Shown here: piece by piece, positions 1 to 42,270 of the stretch
Numbering within the stretch: the first letter of the stretch is position 1
How the letters are laid out: the number at the start of each line of letters is the position of its first letter
Origin: Squalus acanthias
Lineage: Eukaryota
Reading direction: 5' to 3'
NCBI GenBank assembly: GCA_030390025.1
Contig: CM059440.1
Coordinates: 52,638,001-52,702,000, forward strand
Length of the DNA: 64,000 bases
Notes under the pieces: generated by a model
The model's input: the letters and a program-made list of their open reading frames with translations, nothing else
Database searches by the model: none
What the model was told of the DNA's origin: nothing
Program-made: the position numbers and the translations under genes

Positions 1-68
1 CTCTTACGTCCCTCCCCAAGTTTATTGGTGGTTAGCAACAAGTTTTCTTTCCCTCCCTCCTTCTTCAC

Positions 69-1840
69 TCATTTATCTAGGGTTTTCATTCTGTGTCTGT
101 GATAACCCCTGCAACAATCAATCAGAATGTATAATGATAGTAATAATTGAACTACCACTAGCACATGTGACATGATCCTGATCCGTGGATGTACATTCAC
201 ATTTAGTCCCCAGTTCCAGATCTTATTGTACCAAGAAGTTTCTGCTAAGGTTTTACTAATGTCTTTAAATTGTTCCTTTAAGTCTTCTATTCTATGATAA
301 TGTTTTAAAATCTCCTTCGTTTCCTGCTGTAATTTCTTCCAAGCTTTTTCTTCCTCTAACTTAGGAAGTGCCTTGGGCTCTGGTATGACACAAGTTTCAA
401 TCATTCTATTAAGTCCTGTATTATTAAGGGAAAAACTTTTCTCTTGTGGTCTTGGTGGGTGTATATATTGGTGCCCTATCTGCATAGGTATCTCTGGGTA
501 AAAACAAAAGTTTGGCTGGGGAATGGGACAAGTCAGATCTTGATATTCATATTTCTATTCAGCTGTGGTGACACAAAATGTCCCGTTGTTCTCCAGTGCT
601 ACCCTTGTTCGGTGTATCCCCCTTGGGTGTACCTCAAGGGTACAATTGGTGGTTCTCGTAAATCCGCACTTGGCTGTGTCTCCCTCGGTGGGGGGGTGTG
701 TGCATACCCATGTCCTTCCCTTGTGGTGGCCCCCGTCCATCACCACCCCACCTTAAGGTTCTATTCTTCTGGTTATTATCTTCATCCCTTTTCCAAATCG
801 TCTTGGTAGGGACATCATGATATTTAACCCAACTCCCCCTTTGTACCTCTCCTATATTAATCACATCATATAGGGGCTGTCCCTCTTCTGGGAGTTGTGG
901 GATGGCCAGTACAAAGCCAATCACCTTAGTCCATGGGGTCAGACAATTGCCTGCCCTGTGTACTTGTCCCATTTTATGCCCTTTGCATAGGCTTTTATTT
1001 GTGTCAATCCAAGGTTCCAGATCCTCATTAGTAATCCAATCAGGGATCTGTCCATTATTTATTTGCTTCATGTTATGCTGAGCATTCAACAGTAGCCATG
1101 AGCCATACATGGCACATGTCAATTCCTTATGGGTTTGGTGGGATGCATTGCTAATCTGATCAATAATTGTTTTTGCATGGGGGGGCTACTATCTCTTCCA
1201 CCCCCAACAATTGTTTTGCCGTTTGTCCTCCTACCAGTGCCGTTTGTTGGCTATTTTCAGTGGCTTGTTTTATTAACTTCTTTATTTTTGCCTGTAGTTC
1301 TTCTACTCCTTCACTTACTCCTTCTATGTCAAAACTATTAACTGTTGCTAACCTGGCCGCATACCCAGCTCCGGCCATTTCCAATACTCCCCGTTTCTTA
1401 CGTTGCTGTAAGATAGATTTTCCTTGTGGACCCTCTAATTGTTTCATCCACATATTTGGACTATTGTGGAACCCCCTGCGGGATCCTGGTCCATGTATCC
1501 TGTCTATCCCTGACAGTAAAGGCGAATTTCCCTTGTGATTCCTCTGCCAATGGTATGGACCAGAACCCGTTCTGTATCCAAGACTGTAAATATTTTAAAG
1601 TCTGGTTTCAGACCATTAAATATCTTATTCAATGCGGTCTACTCAAATTTACACCAACCAGAATTTCACCGTGCACAATAAAAGTCTGGTTTTTAATAGG
1701 TTAATTAACCTCAATAACTCCAATTCAATCCAGATCAATTTTTTTAAACTAACCAGACCAGTATCACTTGGAAAAGAAAGAAACCATAGCCACATTAACA
1801 AAGAAACAATTACCCATGCCTTGTAAACATTCAGATTCAT
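69..1840 (-). pseudogene. env: Retroviral envelope glycoprotein with class I / paramyxovirus-F-like layout, disrupted by frameshifts and stops
   Basis: Signal peptide MNLNVYKAWVIVSLLMWLWFLSFPSDTG (from 1840); RKKR at 1391-1402; Gly/Ala-rich fusion peptide GVLEMAGAGYAARLA; heptad repeat; Cys-rich middle region (ORFs 634-1122, 555-746); heptad repeat, TM (VLVVVQLLLSLYILI) and short tail in ORF 69-485. Confidence 0.85.
1454..1623 (-). pseudogene. pol: Retroviral reverse transcriptase fragment embedded in env
   Basis: With two frameshifts it reads IFNGLKPDFKIFTVLD..NGFWSIPLAEESQGKFAFTVRDRQDTWTRIPQGFHNSP, matching the retroviral RT stretch LD..N/DxF..IPL...FAFT....WTRLPQGFxNSP. Confidence 0.85.
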
Positions 1841-2379
1841 TTTCTTCCAGGCACATTGGCAACTGTGACTTCAAGGCTGAAGCTTATCTTTTGTAAAACA
1901 ATTAACAAACTTAAAACAACACACGCTTGTTCATCCTGCAAGACAAGTCTTCAAAGGGTTAAACAGCTTTTAGCGCTCTGTACAAAAGAGTGGGTGGAGC
2001 TAAAACAAAAATGACAGACACTTTTTTAAAGACAGACTTTCAGACAAAATAAATACTGTAACTTCTTAAACATTCACAGTCAGGAAAACTTTCACTCTTT
2101 TAATACACACTTTCACCCAAACTGAGATCCCAGCATTCCTTTTAAGATTCCTTTCACTCAACAAATCTTGTGTTTTATTTGTCTCGGCACAGACATTAAT
2201 AACTTCCATGTCGATAAAACTTTAAATTTCTCTTTTTTTTCTTTTTACATAGGCGTCTCAGCAGCTTTTCCTGGCTTTCCAAATCCCTGTTTATTTTTGG
2301 TGAGTTTTCAGATTGGTTAGCCTGCAAATTAGATCTTTTGGCATCGTTTTTATTGTTACGTATATTCTTATACTCTATC

Positions 2380-2873
2380 TTATACTTTATTGTAAGGTGG
2401 TGGGAGATTATTTTCTTCTGGCCAGGGCGGTGGCTCCGGCCAGTTCCCCCCTCTATCGTATCCTGCTGTTTCCTTTTCTGACCCACCCCCATCTATATTA
2501 CCATCTCCTGATAATTTTGGGTATGAGGGCGTACTGCTGGAGCTGGCTGCCGTCACTGGGTATCCCTTCCCTCTTTGTTTGGGAGTTGTTACTTTTTTTT
2601 CTCTTCCCTTTCTTCCTCTTCCTTCTGTTTCAATTCCTTACATTGTTTCTGGTAACAAGCTAGGATCACCATTCCCCCTTTTCCCTCTTTATCTTTGGTT
2701 TGTCCCCTCCACCAAACCCTTTGGCTCTCTGCACTGTCTTCGGGATCCCATCCTTTCTTTTTCATAGTTTCAATGAGTTTCTGATTTTTGTCCGCTAAAT
2801 AGCGGGTGACGGAGTCGGGATCTCCCCAAGGGAATGGTCCCGCCTCCTTTGTGTTCGAGTCTTTCTTTGACAT
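2380..2873 (-). pseudogene. gag: Short Gag-like (matrix / late-domain) ORF, ~164 aa with a -1 shift at an A8 run
   Basis: First ATG-initiated ORF of the track after the PBS (2873-2589); continues in the -1 frame to ...SYPKL...WPEPPPWPEENNLPPPYNKV* (YPKL 2512-2523, PPPY 2392-2403); no capsid or CCHC motifs seen. Confidence 0.6.
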
Positions 2874-3164
2874 TGAGTTACTACCTTCCGTGGGTAGTCT
2901 CCCTTCTGTCCATTCTTTTAAGAATTCTTATTTTACTACGCGCGTTTCTATAGGATTTTGCCGCCTACCCGGCTTGAAGGATTTGCCGCCTCCCCGGCTA
3001 ACCGGACCGCACCACTTCCTCGAGTCTGTCTCTATTTTAGTTCTTTTAATCACAGCCTTACCAGATCTCACAGTACGTTCTGAGCTTTCTAATTTATGGG
3101 TGGTAATTTAAAACGTACTCACCCTCTCTAGCTCAACGTTCCCGTGGGCCGGTAAGGGTCTGCG

Positions 3165-3182
3165 ATCCTGCCGACTACGCCA
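3165..3182 (-). promoter_or_regulatory. Primer-binding site complementary to tRNA-Ser
   Basis: Minus strand TGGCGTAGTCGGCAGGAT is the complement of the vertebrate tRNA-Ser 3' end (ATCCTGCCGACTACGCCA); it lies 2 nt after the LTR terminal CA. Confidence 0.92.
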
Positions 3183-3184
3183 AT

Positions 3185-3851
3185 TGATGTAAGTCAGAAG
3201 CGGACGCAGTGATTTACAAGGTCGACGCTCAGCCTCGATACAGATGACAGACTTCGAGTGATGGTTCAAAATGGTCCTTTATTGTCCACAGGCCTGGGGA
3301 GAACCTTCTGAGACTCTACTCAGATCCGACTCCACCAATACCCTGGCAACGTTTACAATTATACACAAAAATCATATCCCGCCCTAGGGGTGGGTGCAAA
3401 GCTATCAAGTATACAGATTTATTACTAAATGGCAAATATAAAGTATAACATTTCATCCTTCCTACCGCCTACAAATTGCGTGACATGTGGCATTACGCCC
3501 TACATTCCCGATTAATCACATTTCTGTTATCAGTTGGTCCAAGGAACTTCTGAGACTGCGGCCTTGGATGAGTCTATTGCTGCTACAACTGCCCTTTGTC
3601 TCTGGCCAGATGGTTTGTGCAGTAGTGTTTTTTTCTTAAGATAACAGTTCCTGTTTTTGTAACAGGCTCAAGTTACTTCTGCAAAGCAAGCAGAGTGTGA
3701 TTAGTGACTGAGACTTTTCCAATGGCTTTTAGCAGTCAGCCATTTTACGATGCCCACATTACATACTTTACTTACTAAATACACATTTCCCCTCTATCTC
3801 GGTCCTATACCTAACACTTAATAATATTAAATATAAAATTTAATTACTTCA
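3185..3851 (-). repeat. 5' LTR of the ERV (667 bp)
   Basis: Minus-strand ends TGAAGTAA...TTACATCA (7/8 inverted repeat); AATAAA at 3278-3283; TATA-like sequence near 3358-3365; abuts the PBS. Confidence 0.85.
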
Positions 3852-5110
3852 TGCTGCAAATTTGAAATAACAACAGAAAACGCTGGAAAAACTCAGCAGG
3901 CCAGGCAGCATCCGTGGAGAGAGAAACAGAGTTAACGTTTCAGGTCTGGGACCCTTCATCAGAACTGGAAAAAGCTGGAGATGTAACAGATATTAAGCAG
4001 GTGCAGAGACACCGGGGGGGAGGGGGGGGGTGCGGGGGGAGAGGAGCTGAAGGAACGTACTGTGCTTTTGTAAGAGGCAGGAAAGATAAAATGTTGCAAA
4101 TGGGGATGGCAAAATCATACAGCATGAGAAATGGGGGCAGGGGTTATAGTTTGAAATTGTTGAACTCAATGTTGATTCCAGAAGGCTGTAAAGAGCCTAA
4201 TCGAAAGATGAGGTGCTGTTCCTCGAGCTTAAGTTGAGCTTCATTTGAACAATGTAATAGGCCGAGGTCAGAGTGGGACTGAAGCGGTGAATTAAAGTGA
4301 AAGGTGACCGGAAGCTCGGGGTCACCCTTACGGACTGAACGGAGGTGTTCCGCAAAGCGGTCGCCCAATCTGCGTTTGGTCTCCCCAATGTAGAGGAGAC
4401 CACATCGTGAGCAGCGAATACAGTATACTAAATTGCAAGAAGTACAAGTAAATCACTGTTTCACCTGGAAGGGGTGTTTGGGGCCCTGGACAGTGGGAAG
4501 GGAGGAGGTAAAAGGGCAGGTGTTACATCTCCTGCGCTTGCATGGGAAGGTGCCGGGCGAAGGGGAAGAGCTGTTAAGGGTGATTGAGGAGTGGACCAGG
4601 GTGTCGCGGAGGGAGCGGTCCCTTCGGAATGCTGAAAGGGGAGGGGAGGGGAGGGGAAGATGCGTTTGGTGGGATCACGTTGGAGGTGGCGGAAATTACG
4701 CAGGATGATCCGTTGAATGTGGAGGCTGTTGGGGTGAAAGGTGAGGACAAGGGGAACCCTATCGTGGTTCTGGGAGGGAGGGGAAGGGGTGAGAGCAGAA
4801 GTGCAGGAAATGAAATGGACATGGTCAAGGGCCGTGTCAACCACAGTAGCAGGGAATCCTCGGTTGAGGAAAAAGGAAGACACGTCGGAAGCACTGGTAT
4901 GGAAGGTGGCATCGTCAGAACAGACGCGGCGGAGACGGAGAAACTGGGAGAATGGAATAGAGTCCTTACAGGAAGCGGGGTGGGAGGAAGTGTAGTCCAG
5001 GTAGCTGTGGGAGTCAGTAGGCTTGTAGTGGATGTTTGTCGAAAGCCGATCGCCAGAAATGGTGACGGAGAAGTCAAGAAAGGGAAGGGAAGAGTCGGAG
5101 ATGGACCATG
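3852..5110 (-). mobile_element. Penelope-like retroelement fragment (RT C-terminus plus GIY-YIG endonuclease)
   Basis: Translations GDRFAEHLRSVRK...HFNS...LEEQHLIFRLGSLQPSGINIEF and SSFFLNRGFP...RVPLVLTFHP. Confidence 0.8.
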
Positions 5111-5397
5111 GTTCACGGACTCCCAGGCCGCCTGCCTTTTCTGCGGCCTAGAGGAGGAGTCTTAAGTTACAGTCAATTTGTTTAATCAAAAGAGCAACCA
5201 GAAAGAGTAACCTGCAGTTACCTGACACCAACGATACCATAATAAGATACCATAATCTTGGTCACTGCGCTCGGTCCCAGTCTTGAATGGTTTCACTTGT
5301 AATGTTGGGTCATTTTAATGGGCAAGATGGATAATTCCCAAGTAAATATTGTTCATGGAGCTGAAAATAATATTGCAAAGAAACGGCCCCTGTCTAT

Positions 5398-6982
5398 TTA
5401 CATAAGAACATAAGAAATAGGAGCAGGAATAGGCCACTTGGCCCATCGAGCCTGCTCTGCCATTCAATAAGATCATGGCTGATCTTGGGCTCAAAGCCAC
5501 TTCCCTGCCCGCTCCCCATAACCCTTCACTCCCTTATTTTGTAAAAATCTGTCTATCTCCACCTTAAATGTATTTAATGACCCAGCCTCCACGGCTCTCT
5601 GGGGCAGAGAATTCCACAAATTTATGACCCTCAGAGAAGAAATTCCTCCTCATCTCAGTTCTAAAAGGGTGACCCTTTATTCTGAAACTATGCCCCTGAG
5701 TTCTGGATTTCCCCATGAGGGGAAACATCCTCTCTTAATCCACCTTGTCGAGCCCCCTCAGTATCTTGTATGCTTCAATAAGATCACCTCTCATTCATCT
5801 AAATTCCAATGAGTATAGGCCCAACCTCCTCAACCTTTCTTCAAAAGTCAACCTCCTCATCTCTGGAATCAACTGTGTGAATCGTCTCTGAACTGCCTCC
5901 AATGCAAGTATATCCTTCCTTAAATAAGGCGACCAAAACTGTATGCAGTACTCAAGGTGTGGTCTCACCAATACCCTGTACAGTGGTAGCAGGACTTCCC
6001 TGCTTTTATACTCCAACCCCCTTGCAATAAAGGCCAACATTCCATTTGCCTTTTTGATTACTTGCTGCACCTGCATGCTAACTTTTTCTGTTTCATGCAC
6101 AAGGACCCCCAGGTCCCTCTGAACTGTAGCATTTCGTAAAATCTCTCCATTTAAAAAATAATTTGCTTTTTTATTTTTCCTTGCACTTTCCCACATTATA
6201 CTCCATCTGCCAAATGTTTGCCCACTCACTTAGCCTGTCTATGTCCCTTTGTAGATCTTTAAGTCCTCTGCACAACTTGCTTTCCCACCCATCTTTGTAT
6301 CGTCTGCAAACTTGGCTACAGTACACTCGGTCCCTTCATCCAAGTCATTAATGTAGACTGTAAATAGCTGAGGCCCCAGCACCGATCCCTGTGGCACCCC
6401 ACTAGTTACCGTTTGCCAACCGGAAAATGACCCATTTATCCCGACTCTCTGTTTTCTGTTAGTTAACTAATTCTCTATCCATGCTAATATATTACCCCCA
6501 ACTCCGTGAGCTCTTATCTTATGCAGTAACCTTCTTTGTGGCACCTTATTGAATGCCTTCTGGAAATCCAAAGACACCACATCCACTGGCTCACCCTTAT
6601 CCACCCTGCTCGTTACATCCTCAAAGAACTCCAGCAAATTTGTTAAACATGATTTCCCTTTCATAAAACCATGCTGACTCTGCTTGACTGCATTATGATT
6701 TTCCCAATGCCCTGCTAATGCTTCCTTAATGAAGGACTCCAGCATTTTCCCAATGACAGATGTTAGGCTAACTGGTCTATAGTTTCCTGCTTTCTGTCTC
6801 CCTCCTTTCTTAAATAGGGGTGTTACATTTGCGGTTTTCCAATCCGCTGGGACCGCTCCAGAGTCCAGGGAATTTTGGTAGATTGCAACCAATGCATCCA
6901 CTATCTCTGCAGCCACTTCTTTTAAGACCCTGGGATGCAGGCCATCTGGTCCAGGGGACCTGTCGTCTTTTAGTCCCATTAA
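5398..6982 (-). mobile_element. CR1-clade LINE, 5'-truncated (RT and 3' tail)
   Basis: [35 protein letters not shown] motifs; TTCTTATG tandem 3' tail. Confidence 0.9.
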
Positions 6983-41874: not shown

Positions 41875-42270
41875 TTTTTATTCATTCATGGGATGTGGGC
41901 ATCGCTGGCATTTATTGCCCATCCCTAATTGCCCTTGATGAGCTACCTTCTTGGCAGCTGAGTGGCTTGCTAGGCCATTTCAGAGGGCAGTTAAGAGTCA
42001 ACCACATTGCTGTGGGTCTGGATTATAGGCCAAACCAGGTAAGGACAGCAGATATCCTTCCCTGAAGGACATTAGTGAACCAGATGGGTTTTTATGACAA
42101 TCTGGTAGCTTCATTGTCACCAGTACTGATACTAGCTCTTTATTCCAGATTTATTTAATTAACTGAATTTAAATTCCCCAGCTGCCATGAGTGGGATTTG
42201 AACTCATGTCTCTGGATCATTAGTCCAGGCCTCTGGATTACTAGTCCAGTAACAACCACAATGCTACCAT
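41875..42270 (-). mobile_element. tRNA-derived SINE sharing its 3' tail with the second LINE family
   Basis: Minus-strand A-box TAGCATTGTGG and B-box GAGTTCAAATCC; tail gggatgggcaataaatgc...atgaatgaataaaa is also at 45831-45895. Confidence 0.65.

Follow-up and report, generated by a model that had tools for sequence, protein, structure and literature searches.

The window analysed here, a stretch of 64,000 nucleotides from Squalus acanthias (assembly GCA_030390025.1, contig CM059440.1, positions 52,638,001 to 52,702,000), holds in its first 3.85 kb the 5' three-quarters of an endogenous retrovirus (ERV) on the minus strand. The copy reads in the order 5' long terminal repeat (LTR), tRNA-Ser primer-binding site (PBS), leader, gag stub, AT-rich block, a scrap of reverse transcriptase (RT) and env (Table 1). 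It is very probably a dead, internally deleted provirus of the snakehead retrovirus (SnRV)-like branch, clade Huo, which is related to class III, and its family carries an envelope protein (Env) predicted to be of the paramyxovirus F type. The locus itself, though genuine, is an unremarkable dead member of an SnRV-like ERV family; the family-level Env result, of moderate evolutionary interest, outweighs it in importance.

An earlier note on this DNA had recognised an LTR element primed by tRNA-Ser, and both points were borne out. A genome search with the 5' LTR located its partner about 160 bp left of the window edge, and both LTRs are flanked by the target-site duplication (TSD) CAGCA. The PBS, read from 3182 to 3165, complements the 3' end of genomic tRNA-Ser(AGA) genes; the pattern has 65 exact matches genome-wide, and the matching loci that were fetched (three of three) were called as Ser-AGA.

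The arrangement of gag stub, AT-rich block and RT scrap is common to at least nine sibling copies, and the window element therefore belongs to a multi-copy, already non-autonomous subfamily missing most of gag-pol. The RT scrap is found in nine fetched loci at 96-98% identity, most of which also carry the AT-rich block (93-95%), for which the genome holds 40 or more matches; all 40 that were scored lie at 93-100%. On top of this, the window copy has lost at least 2 kb by its own unique later deletion, which fused the RT scrap to env: all eight sibling copies examined have 2.1-5.6 kb of extra sequence at the point where window positions 1453 and 1452 meet, in which lie the YVDD portion of RT and the 5' end of env, and the joined RT-env sequence occurs once in the whole genome. 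The window copy has no integrase, and an Rfam scan of window positions 1-4000 gave no match.

Table 1. Features of the provirus in the window (all on the minus strand)
Feature	Position	Strand	Remarks
5' target-site duplication, CAGCA	3852..3856	-	matching copy after the 3' LTR, beyond the window
5' LTR, 667 bp, TG...CA	3185..3851	-	19 differences in 666 sites against the 3' LTR
Primer-binding site, 18 nt, tRNA-Ser type	3165..3182	-	sequence and complementarity to tRNA-Ser 3' ends
Leader	2930..3164	-	86-98% identity to 11 sibling loci over 163-255 bp
gag 5' stub, broken near 2590-2640, truncated	2383..2927	-	fuller relative L021 for comparison
AT-rich non-coding block of the deleted subfamily	1625..2344	-	35% GC; genomic copies at 93-100%
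RT scrap, 57 codons, motifs NGFW and PQG/FHNSP, frameshifted, without YVDD	1453..1623	-	
Copy-specific deletion junction, 1-nt microhomology; rest of pol and 5' part of env removed	1452..1453	-	
env remnant: last 20 pre-cleavage codons and whole fusion subunit	69..1452	-	frameshifts at ~1175 and ~750; in-frame stop 555-557; premature stop 69-71
Furin-type cleavage site RKKR, then likely fusion peptide	1391..1402	-	aligns with the cleavage site of loki-type Env
Predicted transmembrane anchor	120..182	-	sequence
3' region leaving the window	1..68	-	polypurine tract and 3' LTR at G000:C16:52637838-52636433, interrupted by a ~740-bp insertion

The env gene had been described earlier as a short subunit, an RKKR site and a long subunit. 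The site is present at 1402-1391 and is followed by about 440 codons up to the stop at 69-71, whereas only 20 codons precede it in this copy, joined to RT by the deletion. The short-then-long description is roughly true of the family, though not for the reason originally given: in loci L013 and L021, 208 aa run from the Met to the cleavage site, made up of a signal peptide, a head rich in Cys, a stalk rich in Thr and a ~75-aa conserved core, with ~440 aa after the site. The signal peptide and the string IDLD*IGVIEV, which had been taken for the start of an F2 subunit, lie instead in the AT-rich block (stretch 1870-1650) upstream of RT, and none of the six frames of that block (1625-2344) reaches 0 bits against either Env profile, the family one or the lokiretrovirus (loki) one. 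The short cytoplasmic tail was real only in part, being partly due to an early stop codon (16 aa follow the DCC mark, against 51 in the sibling L020). The reported absence of a gamma-type motif was confirmed, as neither CX6CC nor a motif like that of the immunosuppressive domain, LxNRxxLD, occurs in the five family Env frames tested from the genome, and the window env pieces match no gamma-type transmembrane-subunit family of Pfam up to E 1; their sole Pfam match is a weak one to Baculo_F (E 0.026). The ~440-aa subunit also contrasts with the short transmembrane subunit that bears these motifs in gamma-type Env.

Relatives of this Env are numerous. A genome search with one env piece of the window gave 150 scored matches of 5,882 candidates, from ~94% down to ~30% identity, and a hidden Markov model of ten Env frames retrieved 75 proteins in a full scan of a library of 1.84 billion. 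Named hosts among the 20 relatives looked up include Mustelus, Rhinoraja, Chiloscyllium, Pristiophorus, five frog genera, coelacanth and cyprinids, with lamprey at the weak end; a word-indexed homologue search with the L028 Env found none. In Pfam, 26 Env relatives yielded one loki-type protein as Fusion_gly (E 4.7e-6) and one fragment as Baculo_F (E 0.0011).

The family Env is well supported by prediction as a paramyxovirus-F-type class I fusion protein, and the F-type envelope suspected earlier thus stands, through sibling copies. The protein modelled, as a monomer, was the 549-aa natural open frame of L020, which is 77-91% identical to the window pieces; with a 40-row alignment, AlphaFold2 (AF2) reached a predicted local distance difference test score (pLDDT) of 71.5. 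The model displays the features of an F-type (class Ib) fusogen, namely the F structural core and a cleavage site followed by a fusion peptide and a long heptad repeat. The Foldseek comparison with F proteins and foamy Env that the earlier note had proposed, run on L020, listed PDB matches that were all paramyxo- or pneumovirus F, with respiratory syncytial virus (RSV) F best (E 2.7e-10) and human parainfluenza virus 3 (hPIV3) F also present. VIA-align superposed the model on hPIV3 F with Z 11.8 and a root-mean-square deviation of 4.9 over 283 residues, and the 50 entries listed span Z 9.4-11.8 over model residues 1-397 at 7-16% identity; foamy Env structures are not among these ~50 best PDB entries, a list that excludes nothing. 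Among predicted viral structures (BFVD), the model also matches lispivirus glycoproteins, baculovirus F, the Env of the walleye epsilonretrovirus WEHV1 (walleye epidermal hyperplasia virus 1; model Q9WHI8, E 2.5e-12) and, more weakly, feline foamy Env (E 2.3e-6). The two retroviral Envs share the F-like fold with the shark family but are longer (1317 and 981 aa, against ~650) and belong to other Pol lineages. The WEHV1 match suggests that the so far unclassified Env of exogenous epsilonretroviruses may be F-type, and walleye virus Envs are described as being without gamma-type marks (PMC9967133; papers are cited here and below from the accessible parts of their text).

Direct homology links this Env to that of lokiretroviruses. 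Three weak matches to the Env profile (P0201, E 6.2e-9; P0209; P0224) are loki-type by eye when set against the published Loki-Str Env, and P0209 matches Pfam Fusion_gly; HHalign aligned the family Env to the loki-type Env with a probability of 99.2% (E 9.7e-20, 384 columns, 16% identity). The earlier note had assigned the element itself to the lokiretroviruses, so that the lineage would reach cartilaginous fishes, and the shared features are not trivial: as in lokiretroviruses and lokiorterviruses (PMC7947760, PMC9040795), the Env is F-type with RxKR, fusion peptide, coiled coil and transmembrane segment, RNase H is dual, and the RT carries NGFW and the upstream motif W..[HD]..DCG of Loki-Str. 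Of these marks, NGFW is indeed present at ~1623-1453 but not diagnostic, since Loki-Str and clade Huo ERVs both have it; the Ser PBS was likewise rejected as a loki marker. Against the assignment, the family Env forms its own clade (support 99) apart from the loki-type proteins (100), and on the family profile the window env reaches 57-225 bits but on the loki profile it stays below 8, a pattern reversed at two other loci. The pre-cleavage subunit, with its variable head, has 208 aa rather than the ~115 of loki-type Env, the RT motif is PQG and not PFG, RNase H is of the murine leukemia virus (MLV) type, and the closest Gag, that of L021, has two CCHC knuckles and no smc part. The lokiretrovirus reading, set apart by RT motif, RNase H type and Env tree alike, has already been largely refuted, and a true lokiretrovirus at this locus is hardly credible.

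The polymerase points to the SnRV-like branch. Lokiretroviruses have an RT that is sister to canonical retroviruses and lies outside them, and an integrase sister to CGIN1. Across 43 loci scanned (L007-L049), an RT motif was seen on the env strand in 16; every one belongs to the PQG/LQG type and none to the loki-type PFG found in Loki-Str RT. The window family has in common with clade Huo and Ca_mi_ERV1 the RT strings TNSP.WPV.KPD, LDI.NGFWSIPL, PQGFHNSP and LQYVDD (PMC4422223, PMC6001957) and chondrichthyan hosts, and over 128 residues compared by eye the RT matches Ca_mi_ERV1 at ~73 (~57%) and Loki-Str at ~48 (~38%). A grouping of the RT with class III, named beforehand as speaking against a lokiretrovirus, is therefore what this match to Huo/SnRV-like ERVs brings. 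On the MLV RT, the 947-aa L012 Pol reaches 375 bits, against 213 on the foamy one, and its RNase H 113 bits against 29, a comparison of scores on PDB structures made without a tree; its Pfam pair RT_RNaseH_2 and RNase_H, a dual RNase H, is common to all retroviruses and does not discriminate. Since loki RNase H groups with that of foamy viruses (group I; PMC7947760), this score pattern fits class III/SnRV-like canonical retroviruses, and an MLV-type RNase H is also what RNase H group III leads one to expect of clade Huo. The L021 Gag is a 575-aa frame; one zinc knuckle is reported for SnRV Gag and none for that of spumaviruses (PMC2717909). An orthoretrovirus-type RNase H (L012) and Gag zinc knuckles (L021) are thus both present, as in clade Huo/SnRV-like ERVs, from which the window copy differs as a non-autonomous, doubly deleted derivative. 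OVEX1 was considered as a close relative and rejected on the strength of its Gag, described as having no zinc finger (a comparison by description only).

A fish or shark foamy-like ERV (FLERV; clade Tu), whose Env would be F-like for the same reason as that of foamy viruses, shares part of this profile: the L021 RT core scores slightly higher on foamy than on MLV structures (144 against 126 bits; a class III-type RT would be expected to do the same), feline foamy Env is among the fold matches, and foamy-like ERVs have been published in sharks. The RNase H and whole-Pol scores given above run the other way, as do the Gag zinc knuckles, and the PBS is Ser, against Lys or Asn in the FLERVs described. 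Foamy Env has a long leader peptide and a surface subunit of ~450 aa; the family has neither, and the space between env and the 3' LTR is too small for accessory open reading frames. A foamy-like origin is very unlikely, and the SnRV-like assignment is kept.

In the RT trees, the L010 copy of the window subfamily groups at 98 support with L012/L021, fish proteins and one from Heterodontus; this clade lies outside a gamma/epsilon-like clade supported at 99 and apart from Ty3/gypsy. These were a quick tree of 53 rows (P0049 dropped for short coverage) and a FastTree of 40 rows, picked by hand from 124 RT matches; an RT scan of viral_contigs gave 20 pattern matches, none confirmed. Several points weigh against the combined picture of a Huo-type polymerase and an F-type Env. 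Pol sequences of SnRV, ERV-L, foamy viruses and loki are absent from the trees, which cannot position the clade relative to them, so to speak of Huo is to rely on a by-eye comparison with published supplement sequences, on motifs and on PDB scores, and the Huo label of Ca_mi_ERV1 was itself read off the order of names in the text of a tree figure. The RNase H tested comes from L012, and the L012 RT shares only 76% DNA identity with the window scrap. On the Env side, the model is of L020 and not of the broken window copy, with a predicted template modelling score (pTM) of 0.52 and TM-scores of 0.3-0.4; a first AF2 fold of the same protein with 10 rows was poor (pLDDT 35). Sequence searches of PDB with a single Env and with a 40-row profile found no F protein, and Pfam assigned the family Envs to no fusion-protein family.

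The host range is not new, because SnRV-like ERVs are published in the elephant shark (CmiERV lineage I, which is Ca_mi_ERV1; PMC4422223) and clade Huo is said to infect all major vertebrate lineages (PMC6001957, in whose tree text snakehead retrovirus is surrounded by Ca_mi_ERV1 and An_an_ERV1/3/4); in cartilaginous fish, RTs of clade III predominate (10.1101/2023.10.17.562709). The possible novelty that the earlier note had drawn from the window element falls away with the lokiretrovirus assignment. Its loki host list, which lacked chondrichthyans, was correct, as the accessible text of the loki paper scores Orectolobiformes at zero of three genomes and names no chondrichthyan class among the hosts. 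The C2 and C6 remnants found elsewhere in this genome, not the window element, are possible candidates for a chondrichthyan loki. Querying the genome with the loki-type Env gave two weak matches. At L050:1536-2683 (G000:C2:108.131-108.132 Mb, minus strand), an env fragment riddled with stops reaches 35 and 21 bits on the loki profile, with no score on that of the family; just upstream of it lies an integrase remnant that by eye is similar to Loki-Str, and RT was not found nearby. At ~8350-8530 of L052 (G000:C6:99514848-99515024, plus strand) only an env scrap is present, with 32 bits on the loki profile and none on the family one. An exact degenerate search for the loki-type RT motif had no match in the genome, which says little for eroded copies.

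How the SnRV-like family came by its Env is a separate matter. The element could be a recombinant in which a canonical Huo gag-pol acquired an env captured from a loki-like or Mononegavirales-like donor, so that F-type env would not be ancestral to the clade; this concerns the origin of env only and is compatible with the Huo classification. The fuller relatives L012/L021 have env fusion subunits ~90% identical to those of the window subfamily behind RTs only 76% identical (DNA), and head domains differ between families, so that modular exchange is visible, as such a capture would require. The homologous Envs of sharks, frogs, coelacanth and cyprinids, however, form their own deep radiation, so any capture would be ancient, and the Envs of WEHV1 and foamy viruses have the same fold. 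On balance, a captured env is somewhat unlikely. The mismatch between env and RT identity in L012/L021 also points to recombination among co-packaged genomes, and the subfamily would have spread non-autonomously, packaged and reverse-transcribed in trans by proteins of such fuller relatives. Copies of the AT-rich block at 77-92% also occur in more distant ERV families, which have other env genes (L032, L034, L040, L042, L047, L048), and the sequence that the window copy lost includes a second AT-rich block.

The heads of these Envs are entirely different between families (the env 5' parts of L013/L021, L023, L028 and L017/L018), with a conserved core. The window subfamily combines a remnant head like the L028 type with a fusion subunit of the L012/L021 type, which suggests module swapping. 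A second Huo-like family (L029:839-9877, L045, L044) has a coiled-coil Gag N-terminus and an Env head with a weak immunoglobulin (Ig) match (Ig_3, E 0.068), and a Chiloscyllium relative is labelled 'Ig-like domain-containing'.

F proteins are cleaved by furin, release a fusion peptide and refold into a six-helix bundle, and paramyxoviruses place the attachment function on a separate protein. By analogy of fold, the Env of the parent virus would have been cleaved at RxKR, and its ~440-aa subunit would refold from a pre-fusion trimer to a six-helix bundle, like RSV and PIV F. The variable head of ~130-330 aa before the conserved F2-like core, which in the window's family is rich in Cys and has a Thr-rich stalk and in the neighbouring one is Ig-like, may serve as a built-in attachment module with a putative receptor-binding role. 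It would thus stand in for the separate attachment protein, and this extra N-terminal head, the retroviral carrier and the low identity set the family apart from paramyxo- and pneumovirus F, with which it shares the predicted fold.

An F-like env alone is insufficient for calling lokiretroviruses, a mark that proves too narrow given that foamy Env is F-like (PMC11468914) and the WEHV1 Env model matches as well. The independent origin of loki and canonical retroviruses has been argued partly from Envs that 'did not share detectable similarities' (PMC9040795), whereas here a family with a canonical Pol has an Env that aligns to the loki-type Env and has an F-like predicted fold. These models suggest that the F-type entry machine occurs in more retroviruses than has been assumed, and, with the foamy Env and WEHV1 match, a scenario in which F was ancestral becomes testable. 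We put forward tentatively, as somewhat short of an even chance, that an F-type fusogen was the ancestral retroviral Env, kept in loki, foamy, the SnRV/Huo branch and walleye epsilonretroviruses and later replaced in others by gamma- and beta-type Envs, with the shark family as a link and eroded true loki remnants in the same genome. If so, the family would be a link by direct sequence homology to loki Env that undercuts the published preference for independent Env origins, and the remnants would be the first in a cartilaginous fish. A full-text literature search of partial coverage found no statement that Huo/SnRV-like Env is F-type, and none occurs in the accessible text of PMC4422223, PMC6001957, PMC10699275, PMC5512871, PMC12583693, PMC13709493, PMC11521997, PMC2717909, PMC9040795, 10.1101/2023.10.26.564294 and 10.1101/2021.11.23.469661; the point may already be in print.

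The LTR pair differs by a Kimura two-parameter distance (K2P) of 0.029, which, combined with two assumed shark rates, 0.5e-9 (PMC10699275) and 2.2e-10 (PMC4422223), places the insertion about 29-66 million years ago, depending on which rate applies. About 146 kb away, at L002:4002-8513 (G000:C16:52.49 Mb), the flanks are duplicated at 97-99% identity around a solo LTR with the same TSD, the result of a segmental duplication after insertion and then LTR-LTR recombination in one copy. The ~740-bp element that splits the 3' LTR (L001:2870-3612) has terminal inverted repeats and is likely a miniature inverted-repeat transposable element; a 96% identical copy lies, inverted, in the L002 flank. Beside the 5' LTR, window positions 3860-6230 hold retroelement fragments, with, as judged by eye, a GIY-YIG/Penelope-like frame at ~4144-5147 and the end of a CR1-like long interspersed nuclear element at ~5490-6230. 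Elsewhere in the genome, a tandem array at G000:C889:337885-866485 matches the tRNA-Ser 3' pattern ~59 times, often with a spacing of ~1.7 kb, and within the window a tRNA-Ile(AAT) was called once by ARAGORN at 42183-42256.

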